A DNA stretch of 64,000 nucleotides from a virus. A model generated the notes under the pieces. It was not told the DNA's origin, did not search any database, and worked only from the letters and a program-made list of their open reading frames with translations. Each line of letters starts with the position of its first letter. Positions within the stretch are counted from its first letter, which is position 1. Position numbers and translations under genes: made by a program. The stretch lies in IMG/VR virus record IMGVR_UViG_3300032397_000005, positions 32,001 through 96,000 of that record; one strand, 5' to 3'. Positions 31,946 through 41,690 of this stretch are shown one piece after another.

Positions 31946-32052
31946 CCGCTCCCTCCTCCCCCCATCTTAGCAACTGTTCCGGTTGCGGACTAGGGTTCTC
32001 TGCGCTCATCTCACTGGGGACGCTTCAAACTAAGCGATAACTTTACGGTCAG

Positions 32053-34512: not shown

Positions 34513-36597
34513 ATGAGCGAGCGTCAAGCGGCGGAGGTCCAGATCCAGCGCGACTTCGCGGACAACCCTACCGTCGCGGAGATCAAGAAGCGCAACGTGA
34601 ACGTGTTGCGGGCCACCGTCCTTGGCTTGGCGCGGATCCGGGAGGAGAAGCTTTCCCGGCAGAGGGAGGCGGATAGACCCGCGTCCGGGACCGGGACCTC
34701 CGCTGGGGAGAGCAAGGCGCTACTGAACGACCCCATCTCGGTCCTCATGCAGAGCGGTCAGGTGGTTGCTCCACCGTTCGACCTCCTCACCCTGGCGGTG
34801 ATGCCGGAGAACAGTACGGAACTCGGCCCTTGCATCGACGCGATGGCCGTGAACGTGGAGGGGTTTGGCTGGCGGCTCGAGTCCCGCGTTCCGGTCAACG
34901 AGCGGACGCCGGTGGAGGTTCTCCAGATTCTGGAGGAGGAGCAGGTCATAGCGGAGAACTTCTTCAGCAACTGCTGCCCGGACGGGGAGTCCCTCGAGGA
35001 CCTCCGGGATAAGCTTCGGCGGGACCTGGAGGCCACCGGGAACTGCTACGTGGAGTTCGTGGAGGTTCCGGGGACGGGACGCCTGGACGGGTTGAATCAC
35101 CTCCCCTCGTGGACGATGCGTATTGGGCGCGTGGAGCAGGAGTCCACGGAGTACGTGGACCTGGGCGTGGAGAAGATGGTCCGCTTCGTGGAGCTCCCTC
35201 CGGAGCCGAAGGAGTCGACGGAAGTACCTGAACTCGCTGACGAGGAATTCTCTGCGGATGAGGATGGGATCTCCGGACCTCCGCTGAGGCACGTTCAGGA
35301 GGCGGAGGGGGAGCCGATCCGAATCCAGAAGCAGTCGACCTTCGAGACGCAGGTCACCTACGAGCTGCGGGAGCAGGTGCGCTTCAAGCGGTTTCGTCGG
35401 TACGTCCAGCTGCGGGAACGTCAGGTCATCTGGTTCAAGGAACTGGGGGATCCGCGCCTCATATCCAACCGAGACGGGCACGTGGTGACGCGTGAGGAGC
35501 TCCTGAGGGAGGAGAACGGCGGGGAGCAGCTTCAGCGGTTCACGCTCCTCGGGGACCGCGTGACGGTTGCGCTCGGGATTCGGGGTTTTCCGGTCCGGGA
35601 CGCGGCCAACCCGGTTCGTCATAAGCGACTCTACTCCACGCGCTCGCCCTACGGGCTCCCGCGGTACACCGGGCACCTGTTCTCCATCTTCGGTTCCCGG
35701 GCGGCGGAGGAGATCAACTTCACGACGTTCAAGAACAACAACGTTCCCTCTATGGTCATCACGGTGTCCAACGGGAAGATGGACGACGAGTCCGTCGAGC
35801 GGATCGAGGAGTTCGTGGAGGCCACGATTGCGGGGGATGACAATTACAGCAAGTTCCTACTCTTGGAGGCGGAGCCGGTTCTGGAGGGGATGCGGGACCC
35901 GGGGTCGATGCGCATCGACGTCAAGCCGCTTACGTCTGAGCAGCACACGGACGCGATGTTCGTCAACTACCAGAACTCGAACGATGAGCGCGTTCGGCGG
36001 GCCTGGCGATTCCCACCCATCTTCGTCGGGAAGTCGGATGACTTCACGGGCAAGACGATCGAGGCCAGCCGGAAGCTCGCGGACGAGCAGGTCTTCGGGC
36101 CGGAGCGGGGGAAGGTGGACCGCTTCTTGACCCGGGACGTCCTGCTCCGAATCGGGGTGGTCTGGAGCGTGTTCCGGTCCAACTCCCCGAACGTGACGGA
36201 GAACGCGGACCTGGTCAAGCTCCTGGCTCAGGGCGAGAAGACGGGCGGGCTCACACCGCGCATTGCGCGGAGACTCATCGGGCGGATCGTGAACGAGGAT
36301 CTGGGGGAGATTGACACGGATCTCCTCCCTCCGGATCAGCCGTTCTCCCTGACGTTGGCGGCCATCATGAAGACAAACTCGGCCACCGAGGCTCCCGGGG
36401 GCGGGGAACCGACGAGTCAGGGGCGGGCGGGGTTACAGGTTGCCGGTCCACCGAAGGAGTCCATCGCGGAGAGTGCGGACGACGGTGAGGTGTTCTCGTC
36501 CCTGGCGGGGATGATCCGCGCGGAGGCGGCCATGCGCTTTGGGGGGTTTGTCCCGCCCGCGCTGAAGGACGAGCCGGAGGAAGTGGAGCCGGACTGA
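34513..36597 (+). CDS. portal protein (PBSX/XkdE-like)
   Basis: PPFD...L, D.EATGN.Y.E, YGLP, F.NN..P, F..Y, PPI..G motifs; position after TerL. Confidence 0.88.
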   Translation: MSERQAAEVQIQRDFADNPTVAEIKKRNVNVLRATVLGLARIREEKLSRQREADRPASGTGTSAGESKALLNDPISVLMQSGQVVAPPFDLLTLAVMPENSTELGPCIDAMAVNVEGFGWRLESRVPVNERTPVEVLQILEEEQVIAENFFSNCCPDGESLEDLRDKLRRDLEATGNCYVEFVEVPGTGRLDGLNHLPSWTMRIGRVEQESTEYVDLGVEKMVRFVELPPEPKESTEVPELADEEFSADEDGISGPPLRHVQEAEGEPIRIQKQSTFETQVTYELREQVRFKRFRRYVQLRERQVIWFKELGDPRLISNRDGHVVTREELLREENGGEQLQRFTLLGDRVTVALGIRGFPVRDAANPVRHKRLYSTRSPYGLPRYTGHLFSIFGSRAAEEINFTTFKNNNVPSMVITVSNGKMDDESVERIEEFVEATIAGDDNYSKFLLLEAEPVLEGMRDPGSMRIDVKPLTSEQHTDAMFVNYQNSNDERVRRAWRFPPIFVGKSDDFTGKTIEASRKLADEQVFGPERGKVDRFLTRDVLLRIGVVWSVFRSNSPNVTENADLVKLLAQGEKTGGLTPRIARRLIGRIVNEDLGEIDTDLLPPDQPFSLTLAAIMKTNSATEAPGGGEPTSQGRAGLQVAGPPKESIAESADDGEVFSSLAGMIRAEAAMRFGGFVPPALKDEPEEVEPD

Positions 36598-36598
36598 C

Positions 36599-38776
36599 TT
36601 GGACCTCGACAGCAAGACAGCCACCGGAATCACGCCGGAGTTCCTGGCGGAGCTCTCCCACGGGGAGTTGATCTTCCTGGCGGACGTCGTGTCTGAGCGG
36701 ACGCTGGAGCCGGTCCTCCGGGAGGACGAGCGGGATCGCGCCCTGGAGACGGAGCTGGCGGAGGGGTTGGACGCGGACTGGACGGCGGACTACGAGCCGG
36801 CGTCGGAGGCGGCGCTTGCGGACCTCCCGGAGGCGGACGTGTCCGTTGAGGAGGTGGACGCGGCGCTCGGGAGGATTGGGGCCAGTCTAGACAAGCGGGA
36901 CACGTCCGGAGCGCGGAAGTTGTTGCTTGGGGCGTTGACCGCGGTGGCCCTCCTGGCGCGCGGGCGGACCCGGGACCGGGTCCGCGTAAAGGACCCCAAG
37001 GCGGCGGCGCAGGTCTCCACTTCCCTCTCCCAGGCGGACAAGGGGGCGATTGAGGCAACTACCAAGGCGCAGCTCTGGTGGATCGGGGACCTCTGGGGGC
37101 AGCACCTCTCCCGGGTGATCCTGGAGACGGTTCGCCGGGAGGCGTTGGTCCGCGGGCTGGGGCGCGCGGACGTGGGGAAGGTCATGGACGGCGTCATCAA
37201 CGCAAAGGTCCCGGCGGCCTTTGTTCCGGATACCTGGAGGGGGAGCAAGGAGGGGTACTTCCGGATGCTCTCCGGGACGGTCAGGTGCCGTGAGAGTACG
37301 TCCAGCGCCCTGTACTCCCTCCGGGAAGCGGGGTTCTCCCGGTACAGGTTCGAGGCGGTCATGGATGAACGCACCTCGGACGTCTGCTTTCGCGCGGGGA
37401 CGCGGGTGTTCTGCGCGGACGGGGAGCGGGACATCTCGGAGGTCCGGGTTGGAGACACCGTTATTTCCGGGCTTGGAGCGCGGAGGAGGGTGCTCAGGAC
37501 CTGGTTGAATGAAGCGGAGGACTGGAGGGTCATAACGCTGACGTCCGGTCGTACGGTTACGGTAACCTCCAATCATCGGTTCCTCACGGTCCGCGGGTGG
37601 CGCCGCGCGGGGGACCTGGAGATTGGAGAGGACCTTGCCGCGCAGGAAGCACGTCCTGAAGAAACTTGCCGGGGTCTGCGAGCACTGCGGGAAGACGTTC
37701 CCCTACACCCCGTCGAAGACCAAGCCGGTCCGGAAGTTCTGCGGGCTTGCATGCTACCACGCCCGCAAGGGCGCGGAGAAGCGGGTCGAGCGAAAGTGCC
37801 TTCAGTGCGGGGAGACCTTCCACCCGTACCGGACTCACGCGGAGCAAGGGCGGGGACTGACCTGCAGCACCGTATGCCGCCGGAGGTTCTTCCGTCGGGG
37901 GCTCCCGCCGGAGGCGCTCGACCGGATCTGCGAGACGTGCGGGAAGACGTTCAGGGTCCGGCCGCTGGAGCACCTTACCGGGAAGGCGCGTCGACACTGC
38001 TCCAACGAGTGCCGGAAGCGGCGCGGATTGATCGTCTGCGAGACCTGCGGGGTAGAGTTCGAGGCAAAGCTGACGAGCGGAGGGATTCCAAGGCGCTTCT
38101 GCTCCCGTCACTGCTACCACTCCCGGAGGACCGCAACGCGGCCGGAGGTGTTCGTTCGAGCGGTCCTCGAGGAGGCGGGTCTGGAGTTCCGCGCGGAGGA
38201 GCCGCTGGGGAGTCTTTTCCTAGACTTCTTTGTTCCGGCGCTCTCCTTGGGGATCGAGGTGGACGGGACGTACTGGCACTCTCGGGAGAACTCACGGGAG
38301 CGGGATTATGCCAAGGAGGAGGCGGTGCGGCGGGTCGGGATTCGACTCCTGCGGATCTCGGAGGAGAACACCCAGGCGCCGGACGCGGAGAAGCGGGTCC
38401 TGCGGAGTATCTTGCGCGCGCTGTTGGAACCGTCCGCGTTGTCTCAAATGCTCCGCTCCGCGTCGTAGACTTCTCCTACAACCTCTCAGTGGACGGTGAC
38501 CCGACCTATGTAGTCGAGGGGGTGATTGTCCATAACTGCCGGGAACTTCACGACCGCGTGTTCGTCGTTAACGACGGCATCGACCTGATGGAGCGGGTGA
38601 ACGTGGCGGACAACCCGGACGCGGTGAAGGACCTGGCCGGGTGGCGAACCGCGGACGACGTTCGCGGGATCATCGGGAAGCAAGATGCGGAGGGGGCCAG
38701 GAAGTCCCTGACGGAGTCCGGGATCATCTGGCCTCCACTCCACGCCAACTGCCGGAGCGTCATCACGCCGGACTGA
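36599..38776 (+). CDS. MuF / SPP1 gp7-like head morphogenesis protein interrupted by an intein
   Basis: Y.FEAVMDERTS.VC..L...VF after intein removal; C-terminal PPLHANCRS. Confidence 0.85.
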   Translation: MDLDSKTATGITPEFLAELSHGELIFLADVVSERTLEPVLREDERDRALETELAEGLDADWTADYEPASEAALADLPEADVSVEEVDAALGRIGASLDKRDTSGARKLLLGALTAVALLARGRTRDRVRVKDPKAAAQVSTSLSQADKGAIEATTKAQLWWIGDLWGQHLSRVILETVRREALVRGLGRADVGKVMDGVINAKVPAAFVPDTWRGSKEGYFRMLSGTVRCRESTSSALYSLREAGFSRYRFEAVMDERTSDVCFRAGTRVFCADGERDISEVRVGDTVISGLGARRRVLRTWLNEAEDWRVITLTSGRTVTVTSNHRFLTVRGWRRAGDLEIGEDLAAQEARPEETCRGLRALREDVPLHPVEDQAGPEVLRACMLPRPQGRGEAGRAKVPSVRGDLPPVPDSRGARAGTDLQHRMPPEVLPSGAPAGGARPDLRDVREDVQGPAAGAPYREGASTLLQRVPEAARIDRLRDLRGRVRGKADERRDSKALLLPSLLPLPEDRNAAGGVRSSGPRGGGSGVPRGGAAGESFPRLLCSGALLGDRGGRDVLALSGELTGAGLCQGGGGAAGRDSTPADLGGEHPGAGRGEAGPAEYLARAVGTVRVVSNAPLRVVDFSYNLSVDGDPTYVVEGVIVHNCRELHDRVFVVNDGIDLMERVNVADNPDAVKDLAGWRTADDVRGIIGKQDAEGARKSLTESGIIWPPLHANCRSVITPD
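37385..38536 (+). mobile_element. intein (384 aa) in MuF
   Basis: block A CFRAGTRV, block B TSNHRFLT..GW..AGDL..G, block F/G YNLSVDGDPTYVVEGVIVHN followed by +1 Cys. Confidence 0.92.
37635..38468 (+). CDS. Vsr/DUF559-like endonuclease with four treble-clef Zn-finger repeats, encoded in the +1 frame inside the intein
   Basis: 4 x CxxCG..F...CS/GxxC; PE...L, DF, IEVDGTYWH, RD..K, G..LLRISE; GGAGAGG RBS before TTG at 37635. Confidence 0.85.
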   Translation: MPRRKHVLKKLAGVCEHCGKTFPYTPSKTKPVRKFCGLACYHARKGAEKRVERKCLQCGETFHPYRTHAEQGRGLTCSTVCRRRFFRRGLPPEALDRICETCGKTFRVRPLEHLTGKARRHCSNECRKRRGLIVCETCGVEFEAKLTSGGIPRRFCSRHCYHSRRTATRPEVFVRAVLEEAGLEFRAEEPLGSLFLDFFVPALSLGIEVDGTYWHSRENSRERDYAKEEAVRRVGIRLLRISEENTQAPDAEKRVLRSILRALLEPSALSQMLRSAS

Positions 38777-38786
38777 GGAGGAGTAC

Positions 38787-40433
38787 GTGAACAAGCAGGT
38801 GACGGTACAGACCCTGATCTTGGCCAAGGAGACCTTCCCAACGGCGGCGGATGCCACAAAGTGGGTCACGGATCACGACTTTAAGGTCAAAGACGGTGCT
38901 CCGGACGAGACGGAGAGCTCCTGGCGCTACCGTCAGCGGGAGCCGGGTGAGTTCCAGGAGGGGACCTTTCGGACCATAGACATGACGGATGGCGTCCAGG
39001 CCGTGGTCGGACGCCTCAAGGAGGAGAAGATGAGAAGGAACGAGGAGTCGGTGGCGCGCGGGAACGCCCTCCTGCTTCCGCTGAACCTGTCCGTCGACAA
39101 CGTCCACGACCTTGAGTTCGCGGTGGATAAGTTCCGGCAGGCATCTGCGGCCAGGGCCTGGGCGGAGAATCACGGGATGGTTCCGCGGGAGGTCAAGGTC
39201 CGGGCGGACGCGATCTTCGCGGAGATCCTCCCGGCGGATGCATTTGTCTTTGCGACGCTTCGCCGGGAGAAGGTCACCAGGGACGTCTTTGCGGTGGTCG
39301 GGGATCGCGTTGCTGAGATCAATGCTCTCCACGTGGTTCCGGACGCCGACGCTTCGATGGAGGAGAAGCGGGATGTCCAGGAGGTGGATGATCCCTCCCC
39401 GGTGAGGAAGCGAGCGGAGCTCCACGTCCTGAAGGCTAAGGATGCGGCGGATCCAATGGCGGAGGTCCGGATGTTTGGGATCGTCATGAAGCCAGACGTC
39501 CCGGACATCGAGGGGGACGTTACGTCTGTAGAGGAGATCATACAGGCGAACGACCTGTTCATGCGGGAGTTTGGGACCGTTGGCTTCATGCATAAGAAGG
39601 ACGTGACCGAGAAGGTCTCCATCATCCAGAACGTGATTGCTCCGATCGACTTCGACTTCCCGATCGACGACGGGGGGAGCAAGTCGATTGGGAAGGGAAC
39701 GTGGTATCAGGAGCTCTACACGGCAGATGCGGAGCTGGTCAAGCGTATCCGGGAGAGGAAGTTAAACGGGCTCTCCATCGGGGGCTTTGCGCGGCGGGTG
39801 TCGGTGGACGGGGAGGGGGAGGTTCAGGAGGCGGTGGGGAAGCGGTCTCCGGAGCACCTGGGGAAGGCAGAGGGGGACACCCCAAAATCACGATTTGTCA
39901 ACCTTCGCGTCGAGGAGGTGTCCATCGTGGACGCAGCCGCCAACGAGGAGGAGTTCTTCATCATCAAACGGAGGAAAGACATGAGTACGAATCAGGAAAC
40001 GCAGATGGCGGTGGCGCTGGTGGAACAGGTGGGGGCGGTCATCCTACCGGTGACGCCCACGTCACCGGTTGTTCCGGTGGCGGCGGCCGCACCCGCGGCG
40101 GTCACTCCGCCGACTCCGGCGGTCACTCCGCCGACTCCGGCGGTCACTCCGCCGACTCCAGCTGTTCCGGTGTCGGAGCCGGTGGACGTGGCAAAGGCGG
40201 TCCAGTCGGCCGTGAGCTCGGCCGTGGAGAAGGGTATCGCCCCGATCGTGGAGCGGCTCGACGCCGTCGAGAAGCGGCTCAGTGAGCAGGCAACGATCCG
40301 GGCGGCGGCCAAGGGGGAGTCCGTTCCGGAGACCACGGCGCGTCCGGCGGAAGCACCGGCGCAGAAGTCGAAGTGGGCGGGGACGGCGGTTCACAACGTC
40401 GTATCTCGCGCGCAGCAGAGGAAACCCGCCTAG
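38787..40433 (+). CDS. XkdF-like prohead protease / scaffold protein
   Basis: GIV..PD..D.EGD, MH, GTW, GLSIGG and EVSIVD.AAN motifs; Pro/Ala-rich C-terminal scaffold. Confidence 0.8.
   Translation: MNKQVTVQTLILAKETFPTAADATKWVTDHDFKVKDGAPDETESSWRYRQREPGEFQEGTFRTIDMTDGVQAVVGRLKEEKMRRNEESVARGNALLLPLNLSVDNVHDLEFAVDKFRQASAARAWAENHGMVPREVKVRADAIFAEILPADAFVFATLRREKVTRDVFAVVGDRVAEINALHVVPDADASMEEKRDVQEVDDPSPVRKRAELHVLKAKDAADPMAEVRMFGIVMKPDVPDIEGDVTSVEEIIQANDLFMREFGTVGFMHKKDVTEKVSIIQNVIAPIDFDFPIDDGGSKSIGKGTWYQELYTADAELVKRIRERKLNGLSIGGFARRVSVDGEGEVQEAVGKRSPEHLGKAEGDTPKSRFVNLRVEEVSIVDAAANEEEFFIIKRRKDMSTNQETQMAVALVEQVGAVILPVTPTSPVVPVAAAAPAAVTPPTPAVTPPTPAVTPPTPAVPVSEPVDVAKAVQSAVSSAVEKGIAPIVERLDAVEKRLSEQATIRAAAKGESVPETTARPAEAPAQKSKWAGTAVHNVVSRAQQRKPA
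40097..40159 (+). repeat. 3 x 21-bp coding repeat (AVTPPTP)
   Basis: ggcggtcactccgccgactcc x3. Confidence 0.9.
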
Positions 40434-40496: not shown

Positions 40497-41690
40497 ATGA
40501 CGAATGAGGAGCTGGTTCAGAAGGCGATCATCACGACCGCTGACATCGCTTCCGCGGGGAAGCTCAACGACCTGCAGGCGGACGTCTTCATCGACTTCGT
40601 GATCGACGTCACGGAGCTCAAGGGATCCGTCCGCGTTGTGCGGTTCCGAAACGAGTCGATGGCCATCGACAAGATTGGCGTTGGTCAGCGGGTATCCGTC
40701 CCGAAGGAGGAGGCCAAGGACCCGGGGCTGCGCCGGGGAGTCACCACCTCGAAGATCAACTTGACCCCGAAGGAGATCATGACCCCCTTCGAGATCTCGG
40801 ACAACTTCGCGGAGCTCAACATCGAGGGGGAGGCGGTTGAGGACACCGTCGTTCGCCTGATGGCAACGCAGACCGCAAACGACATCGAGGAGGTGATGGT
40901 CAATGGGGACGTCCTTGGTCCGGCGCGGATCGAGGCGGATCTCCTGAACGGCGGATCCACCACTCAGGTCATCAAGGATACCTTCGTGGCCCTGTTTGAC
41001 GGGTGGCTCCGTCTCCTGGACGCCGGGAACATCTACGACGGGCTCGGCGCCAACATCTCGAGCAAGATCTTCTCCTCGATGATCAAGAAGATGCCGGTGA
41101 AGTTCCGGCGGACGCGGCGCAACCTGCGCTTCCTCATGTCACTCGACATGGAGCAGAACTGGCGGGAGAAGATCGCCTCCCGCGCCACCGCCGGCGGAGA
41201 CGCGGCAATCACCTCTGCCAGCGCGATCCCGGTCTTCGGGGTCCCGATGGTTCCGGTGCCCCTCCTTGAGCCGGACCCGCGCGTGGTCCAGCACCTGGTC
41301 TTCGGGGCGGCTCCGGTCACGGTTGCCCTTCGCTACAACCACATCGGGACGGAGATGAGCATCGTCCTCTCGACGCTCGGCGCCTCCCCAACCACCCCCT
41401 ACATCGAGAACACGGACTATACCGTGGACCGGACGCTCGGCACGGTGACCAACGTGGCGGGGCAGGCGATGGCCGCCGGTGGGACCTACAAGGTCACCTA
41501 CCGGAGCGGCTCTCAGATCATCCTCTGTGACTTTCAGAACCTGATCCTGGGGATCGGGCGGGACATCCGGATCGAGTCGGATCGGGACATCTACAAGGGG
41601 ACGAATCAGTTCGCCATCACGACCAAGATCGCCGTCCAGGTGGAGGAGGTGACCGCGACGGTCAAGGGCATCAACATCGGGCTCGACTAG
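40497..41690 (+). CDS. major capsid protein (HK97 fold) with inserted beta domain
   Basis: GKLN..QA..FI, NIEG..VE, D.E....NGD, DGWL motifs; strong RBS; position after protease. Confidence 0.88.
   Translation: MTNEELVQKAIITTADIASAGKLNDLQADVFIDFVIDVTELKGSVRVVRFRNESMAIDKIGVGQRVSVPKEEAKDPGLRRGVTTSKINLTPKEIMTPFEISDNFAELNIEGEAVEDTVVRLMATQTANDIEEVMVNGDVLGPARIEADLLNGGSTTQVIKDTFVALFDGWLRLLDAGNIYDGLGANISSKIFSSMIKKMPVKFRRTRRNLRFLMSLDMEQNWREKIASRATAGGDAAITSASAIPVFGVPMVPVPLLEPDPRVVQHLVFGAAPVTVALRYNHIGTEMSIVLSTLGASPTTPYIENTDYTVDRTLGTVTNVAGQAMAAGGTYKVTYRSGSQIILCDFQNLILGIGRDIRIESDRDIYKGTNQFAITTKIAVQVEEVTATVKGINIGLD

Follow-up and report, generated by a model that had tools for sequence, protein, structure and literature searches.

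How can a phage gene carry a contiguous intein in one reading frame and, over the middle of that same intein, a complete nuclease gene in another? The question is raised by the gene for a MuF-like minor head protein (36599–38776) in the 64,000-nucleotide stretch analyzed here, referred to below as the window, which covers positions 32,001 to 96,000 of the IMG/VR virus record IMGVR_UViG_3300032397_000005 (105,443 bp, complete according to CheckV, and derived from sediment metagenomes). Our analysis makes it very probable that this locus is a dual-coding mobile element, in which a mini-intein would splice itself out of the MuF-like protein and an overprinted nuclease would be produced by internal initiation and drive homing. 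The host gene and all parts of the element lie on the plus strand.

The MuF-like gene is one unbroken open reading frame (ORF) of 725 amino acids, interrupted by a contiguous class-1 intein of 384 amino acids (37385–38536) that is read in the MuF frame; the phage encodes this one intein. The Cys1 codon TGC occupies 37385–37387, and the downstream junction, CAT AAC followed by TGC (His-Asn|Cys+1), lies at 38531–38539, with Cys+1 at 38537–38539. The N-extein (36599–37384, 262 amino acids) ends in MDERTSDV, and the C-extein (38537–38776, 79 amino acids plus the stop codon) starts at the +1 Cys (CRELHDRVF). This insertion is exact: the window reads DERTSDV, the 384 amino acids of the intein and then CRELH, compared with an empty site DERTSEQ|CRELH in intein-less alleles. 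Eight intein-less homologues carry DERTSEQCRELH or near variants of it at the insertion site, and ten such homologues, 339–357 amino acids long, align end to end with the exteins, exactly without residues 263–646. In an alignment of five homologous inteins, each with Cys at the +1 position, the residues Cys1, T61-x-x-H64 of block B, His383-Asn384, and the +1 Cys are invariant.

Only the ends of the intein resemble a splicing domain. Pfam matches to Hint and Intein_splicing families are confined to precursor residues 262–350 and a C-terminal part reaching up to residue 646, with 31.2 bits for Intein_splicing (cut-off 35.8) and 22.4 bits for Hint_2 (cut-off 28.4), at expectation (E) values of 2e-7 to 2e-4. 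The N-terminal splicing region (37385–37633, intein residues 1–83, blocks A and B) and the C-terminal splicing region (38438–38536, residues 352–384, blocks F and G, ending in VIVHN) were modeled by AlphaFold2 as beta strands, with pLDDT (predicted local distance difference test) values of 75–89 and 62–89, respectively. The linker that joins them in the intein frame (37634–38437, residues 84–351) is rich in R, G, A, and P, devoid of motifs, and predicted to be disordered, with a pLDDT of 26–39 and almost no secondary structure. No Pfam domain matches these residues, and thus the intein frame contains no endonuclease motif; with a middle that is unmatched in Pfam and disordered in the model, the element is not a canonical intein with an in-frame endonuclease domain.

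The nuclease is instead found on the same DNA in the +1 frame (37623–38468), as a protein of 281 amino acids if read from the TTG at 37623 or 277 amino acids if read from the TTG at 37635, with a TAG stop codon at 38466–38468; the 277-residue form had already been predicted by a gene caller (P0001). A Shine-Dalgarno-like GGAGAGG (37625–37631), a candidate ribosome-binding site, lies 3 nucleotides upstream of the second TTG (6 nucleotides when counted from its GGAG core), and both TTG codons and the motif between them are conserved in a relative, locus L001, whose nuclease is 81% identical. Pfam assigns the ORF to MTES_1575, DUF559 (29.4 bits, cut-off 20.6), and Vsr, and most of the 18 nuclease homologues likewise have DUF559/MTES_1575 matches; the phage encodes a single DUF559-type nuclease gene. 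The first part of the protein consists of four FCS-type C4 zinc fingers (37677–38114; nuclease residues 19–44, 59–85, 103–130, and 139–164), presumably a DNA-binding array. Their cysteines are invariant or nearly so in 11 family members, they carry the F/H-C-S signature of this type, the family profile weakly matches FCS, MYM, and YacG zinc-finger structures, and zf-FCS and zf-FLZ matches were found in relatives.

The second part is an EDxHD/Vsr-like nuclease domain (38115–38417, residues about 165–265) with D201, E212, D214, H219, and D228, the last four of which form the active-site motif IEVDGTYWH...D and align with structure 3r3p; across 11 sequences, each of these five residues is either invariant or conserved to at least 90%. 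When compared with structures, the family profile matched 3r3p, the catalytic domain of I-Bth0305I (E 7e-15), and Vsr, 1cw0 (E 4e-5), and Foldseek with the AlphaFold2 model of the nuclease (mean pLDDT 82.5) returned 3r3p first (E 5e-5, template modeling score 0.75 on the target), followed by 1cw0 (E 8e-4). The predicted domain order, an N-terminal DNA-binding region followed by a C-terminal nuclease, is that of the EDxHD family. A preliminary description of the window had claimed a complete intein with a motif-less middle and, in the +1 frame, four zinc fingers and a Vsr/DUF559-type nuclease headed by GGAGAGG and the TTG at 37635. The intein coordinates were verified, the absence of Pfam matches and the predicted disorder bear out the motif-less middle, Pfam, profile, and fold matches agree on the nuclease, and the start region is as described, with the TTG at 37623 as a second, equally conserved in-frame candidate.

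A comparison of the window with L001 shows that the two frames are under very different constraints. The ratio of nonsynonymous to synonymous substitution rates (dN/dS, Nei-Gojobori method) is 0.36 in the N-extein, 0.14 in the C-extein, 0.12 in the N part of the intein, and 0.10 in its C part. Across the overlap, it is 0.24 when read in the nuclease frame and 1.28 when read in the intein frame. The exteins and both splicing regions have their substitution peak at MuF codon position 3; in the overlap, the peak shifts to MuF codon position 1, the third position of nuclease codons. All insertions and deletions between the two loci are multiples of three, and only one, of 12 nucleotides, lies inside the intein. 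The low ratio in the nuclease frame, the high ratio in the intein frame, and the shifted substitution peak indicate that the nuclease sequence is conserved and that the linker can change freely provided no stop codon appears in it. The nuclease frame is thus under purifying selection, and the overlapped intein frame is kept only as an open frame.

The same layout recurs in five further loci, namely L001, L002 (= L035), L003 (= L004), L052, and L046, which were found with the nuclease protein in viral and metagenome contigs, the properties of the other frame being no condition of the search. In each, the nuclease ORF is crossed without interruption by a MuF-type ORF that includes Hint N- and C-terminal regions; L046 stops at a contig end, and only its C-terminal Hint region is visible. 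In all six loci, counting the window, the nuclease is offset by +1 relative to the host gene, and in the window and three others it starts 76–79 amino acids into the intein and ends 22–39 amino acids before the intein end. The nuclease ORF has its own stop codon in each of the five. Identity to the nuclease of the window is 37% for both L002 and L003/L004. The overprinted nuclease of L003 (3665–5077) and L004, encoded by a phage of 44–46% guanine-plus-cytosine (GC) content with an intein of 557 amino acids, has about ten zinc-finger modules (up to 470 amino acids), indicating that the finger array grows and shrinks while both frames remain open. At the protein level, MuF precursors from at least five further 50%-identity clusters (P0030, P0037, P0043, P0047, and P0073) align to the linker frame of the window (E 1e-8 to 1e-9), as one would predict for carriers of the same overprinted gene.

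Related nucleases are also found in other arrangements. Free-standing family genes adjoin terminase, polymerase, and other phage genes. In 17 loci (L006, L037, L038, L040, L041, L045, L047, L048, L055, L056, L058, L060, L061, L062, L071, L076, and L080), a long MuF-type ORF with N- and/or C-terminal Hint matches contains a nuclease of the family on its antisense strand. This form, already published in 2025, is commoner in our sample than the sense +1 form; the insertion site is again DE(R/L)(T/V)|C in the four translated hosts (L037, L041, L047, and L048). A split version of the MuF intein was observed in the metagenome contig Ga0123519_10028133 (L081, 1–2956, 37% GC). One ORF of this contig joins the MuF N-extein, an intein N half that seems to begin with Ala, and a zinc-finger/EDxHD nuclease in frame before ending in a stop codon, and the C half of the intein (...GIAVHN|CRC) comes from a short overlapping ORF (2705–2956). 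Here the insertion occupies the second conserved motif of MuF, N|CRC, instead of DERT|C.

In the nuclease tree, the intein-nested forms and eight unclassified loci fall in one clade (Shimodaira–Hasegawa-like approximate likelihood ratio test, SH-aLRT, 90), within which the window, L001, L002, and L052 group together (SH-aLRT 87); in view of the long branches and the quick search, this grouping is only suggestive. The sense +1, antisense, and split in-frame nucleases of MuF inteins could conceivably all go back to one ancient capture, by a MuF mini-intein, of a zinc-finger EDxHD homing endonuclease gene that was later flipped or shifted inside the intein, with the +1 position favored, although we consider such a single origin doubtful. 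The +1 offset would possibly be favored because changes confined to third positions of nuclease codons suffice to eliminate stop codons from the overlapped frame.

These observations suggest the following course of events. A class-1 mini-intein would have inserted into the conserved DERT..|C motif of MuF, and a once free-standing homing endonuclease gene would have come to overlie its central part, in the same orientation but shifted by one base. Ribosomes translating MuF would then read the nuclease DNA in the MuF frame and produce a disordered linker of about 270 residues between the Hint halves, which the intein would remove together with itself to leave a MuF protein of 341 amino acids. 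Translation of the nuclease would be separate, starting internally at a TTG beside the Shine-Dalgarno-like GGAGAGG. The enzyme would most likely cleave MuF alleles that lack the intein, whose repair would then copy in the whole element.

Mobility of this kind agrees with the distribution of the intein among MuF alleles. In the extein tree, the window and L001 are sisters within a well-supported clade that holds seven intein-less alleles, and the other intein-bearing hosts L002, L052, and L003 are placed far off. Synonymous divergence (dS) between the window and L001 is 0.39 in the N part of the intein and 0.42 in the nuclease compared with 0.84–0.99 in the exteins, and the corresponding difference at third positions is significant (Fisher P 4e-4). 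The lower values in the intein and nuclease and the presence of intein-less neighbors are consistent with movement of the element between MuF alleles that had diverged. The strongest rival would accept both frames and deny the movement: the nuclease would be intact, either domesticated or not yet decayed, homing would have been lost, and intein and nuclease would be inherited vertically with MuF. The sister relationship of the two exteins speaks for this, as do the vertical-looking groups of VSR-like inteins reported elsewhere (bioRxiv 10.1101/2025.01.02.630785) and the age of the layout, which must be old since it has been retained while the nucleases diverged to 25–37% identity. We nevertheless judge this explanation unlikely, given that the dN/dS of the nuclease frame and the conserved E/D/H/D residues show the enzyme to be maintained, that intein-less and intein-bearing alleles are interleaved, and that dS in the intein is about half that in the exteins.

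It should be noted that several points weigh against a mobile dual-coding element. The Hint-family Pfam scores lie below their gathering cut-offs, the nuclease start is ambiguous between two TTG codons that are both weak, and a promoter scan near this start found no sigma-70-like site (two terminator-like matches in the same scan are at chance level). The low dS of the intein could reflect constraint on synonymous sites and not recent transfer, and the sister exteins of the window and L001 would also fit an intein inherited vertically in these two loci. The tree supports are SH-aLRT values from quick searches with many long branches.

In a second rival explanation, the lack of stop codons in the intein frame would be a by-product of the high GC content, and the locus would really be a fractured gene or split intein, or a dying gene. 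The GC content of the window is about 65%, and long spurious ORFs are plentiful in its other frames. We therefore compared the observed stop codons with two null models, in which synonymous codons were either shuffled within the nuclease gene or redrawn from the codon usage of neighboring genes, and used the third frame as a control. The intein frame of the window has no stop codon, compared with 4.4 expected under synonymous permutation (P 0.005) and 6.1 expected from neighbor-gene codon usage (P 0.0016), and the third frame has six, matching expectation. None of the further loci has a stop codon in the intein frame either, with 5.6–7.2 expected in L001, 6.8–7.0 in L002, 16.6 in L052 (50% GC), 7.3 in the partial L046, and 29–37 in L003 (44–46% GC); their third frames have 5–29, again as expected. 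Permutation P values are 0.005–0.0002 per high-GC locus. High GC content is ruled out as the cause of the open frame because stop codons are also absent from the phages of 44–50% GC with the same layout (0 compared with 17–37 expected) and do occur in the third frame. As regards a split intein or fractured gene, the host protein is encoded by one ORF of 725 amino acids in the window and likewise by one ORF in L001, L002, L003, and L052, and both intein halves share one frame in six of six loci. Together, these results leave the by-product explanation very little probability.

Programmed ribosomal frameshifting, by which the nuclease would be reached as a fusion of MuF N-extein, intein N part, and nuclease, is comparably improbable. 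The weak TTG starts and the absence of a promoter-like site nearby would fit such a mechanism, but a start codon preceded by a purine-rich motif opens the nuclease ORF in L001 (TTG), L002 (ATG), and L052 (ATG, after AGGAG), no slippery site was noticed, and the free-standing family members of 230–350 amino acids are complete proteins without any N-terminal fusion. An in-frame endonuclease shifted by two compensating indels, a general possibility in metagenome assemblies, is the least credible of the alternatives: contigs from four independent sediment runs compared with 37300–38650 cover both junctions without inserted or missing letters, including across 37555–38650, which one contig spans in full, five loci from different samples share the offset with a separate stop codon for each nuclease ORF, and the sole indel relative to L001 inside the intein is 12 nucleotides long. 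A chance open frame, an assembly frameshift, and a split intein were accordingly rejected, on stop depletion, independent contigs, and the single ORF, respectively.

Inteins with an endonuclease in a separate, overlapping ORF have been described in actinophages (Gosselin, Arsenault, and Gogarten, bioRxiv 10.1101/2025.01.02.630785). These include antisense LAGLIDADG enzymes, antisense VSR-like and probably EDxHD enzymes in minor capsid proteins, and a single same-strand case, that of an enzyme resembling endonuclease VII in "frame 3". In these inteins the region read in frame lacks structure, and the authors propose that free-standing endonuclease genes invaded them. The window shares with them a contiguous intein with a filler middle, an endonuclease ORF over the same DNA, a minor capsid host protein, and a VSR-like type of enzyme. 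It differs in that its VSR-like/EDxHD nuclease is in the sense +1 frame and has N-terminal FCS-type fingers, whereas theirs is antisense, and in that its phage is an uncultured sediment virus of 65% GC and not a PhagesDB isolate. A cyanobacterial dnaX intein with a LAGLIDADG endonuclease in the +2 frame shows low dN/dS in the endonuclease frame and high dN/dS in the intein frame (Phillips, DeSimone, and Gogarten, bioRxiv 10.64898/2026.09.14.751524). This system resembles ours in the same-strand overlapping ORF within a contiguous intein, in the frame-specific dN/dS pattern, and in the existence of intein-less alleles, with mini-intein alleles also present for dnaX; it differs in its cellular host gene, its LAGLIDADG enzyme, and its +2 frame. 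Both preprints credit Gorbalenya 1998 with the first notice of the layout.

More distant parallels are found in three other systems. In the "fractured genes" (Dassa et al. 2009, PMC2677866), the halves of a split intein flank a free-standing gene for a Vsr-like or GIY-YIG endonuclease. They share with the window a Vsr-like family (later named EDxHD), a predominance in phages, and the position of the endonuclease gene between intein blocks B and F, but their host gene is in two ORFs joined by trans-splicing, whereas the intein frame of the window is uninterrupted and under selection to remain open; L081 does represent a split relative. I-Bth0305I (PDB 3r3p), from the study that defines the EDxHD motif (Taylor et al. 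2011, PMC3239194), is the prototype homing endonuclease of this family and the best profile and structural match of our C-terminal domain, with conserved E, D, H, and D residues and the same domain order. It belongs to a group I intron and has NUMOD/helix-turn-helix DNA-binding motifs, in contrast to the intein and four zinc fingers of the window. A hidden out-of-frame HNH endonuclease also characterizes the ShiLan insertion in a methylase encoded by a phage (Arsenault et al. 2025, PMC11855218). There too, the endonuclease gene is written over a phage-gene insert that is in frame and free of stop codons, but that insert has no splicing domain and remains as a loop in the host protein, and the enzyme is of the HNH type.

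The dual-coding element that the preliminary description proposed was supported by every computational test suggested there: hidden Markov model searches of both frames found Hint at the intein ends and DUF559/Vsr in the +1 ORF, homologues keep both frames open with no intein-frame stop codon in five further loci, selection acts on the +1 frame (0.24 compared with 1.28) with stop depletion in the intein frame, and compensating indels were looked for in independent assemblies and not found. Its view of the locus as a third, new arrangement did not hold, because the layout had already been published in the 2025–26 preprints (10.1101/2025.01.02.630785 and 10.64898/2026.09.14.751524). The window locus is a new example and opens no new category, although the Gosselin, Phillips, Dassa, and Arsenault papers do not contain the combination of a MuF intein with an EDxHD nuclease that has a zinc-finger array and lies in the sense-strand +1 frame.

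The identity of the host gene as MuF is indirect, and is suggested by an intein-less allele and by gene order. Phage_Mu_F (PF04233) matches the closest intein-less allele (P0019, 70% identical) with 34 bits (cut-off 29.6) across the insertion point; the two extein halves alone had no Pfam Phage_Mu_F score, the split exteins had no annotated MuF match in PHROGs, and the gene had no blastn match in a phage GenBank collection. Upstream of the 725-residue ORF lies a portal gene (34513–36597, phrog_12), and downstream are a protease/scaffold gene (38787–40433) and a capsid-sized ORF (40497–41690). The protease/scaffold ORF contains, at about 40100–40200, three tandem copies of the peptide VTPPTPA in an Ala/Pro/Thr-rich part where GC content reaches about 0.71. 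The N-extein of L001 has a 24-nucleotide (8-codon) insertion relative to the window at 36999, in a variable Pro/Gly-rich part of MuF, and several intein-less alleles share this longer form. Within the N part of the intein, Logan contigs of all four sediment runs break in a stretch of about 30 bases (37537–37570) that holds the short palindromes GACGTC, CGTACG, and GGTTAC/GTAACC, which may be an effect of the assembly graph or of coexisting variants.

The locus is a natural case of two proteins encoded on the same DNA, one frame being selected for its sequence and the other only for the absence of stop codons. It supports the model of intein evolution in which the splicing element comes first and the endonuclease invades later, and it adds to an EDxHD/Vsr-like family whose association with MuF inteins takes four forms or more: free-standing genes, antisense genes, sense +1 genes, and a fusion to a split half. 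For annotation, it is a warning that large inteins seemingly without an endonuclease may hide a nuclease gene in another frame, and the combination of a zinc-finger array with a compact dimerizing nuclease may be of interest to enzyme engineers. If the nucleases of MuF inteins did derive from a single ancient capture, the element would be a long-lived partnership of two mobile components with a predictable rule of overprinting, and not a transient accident.

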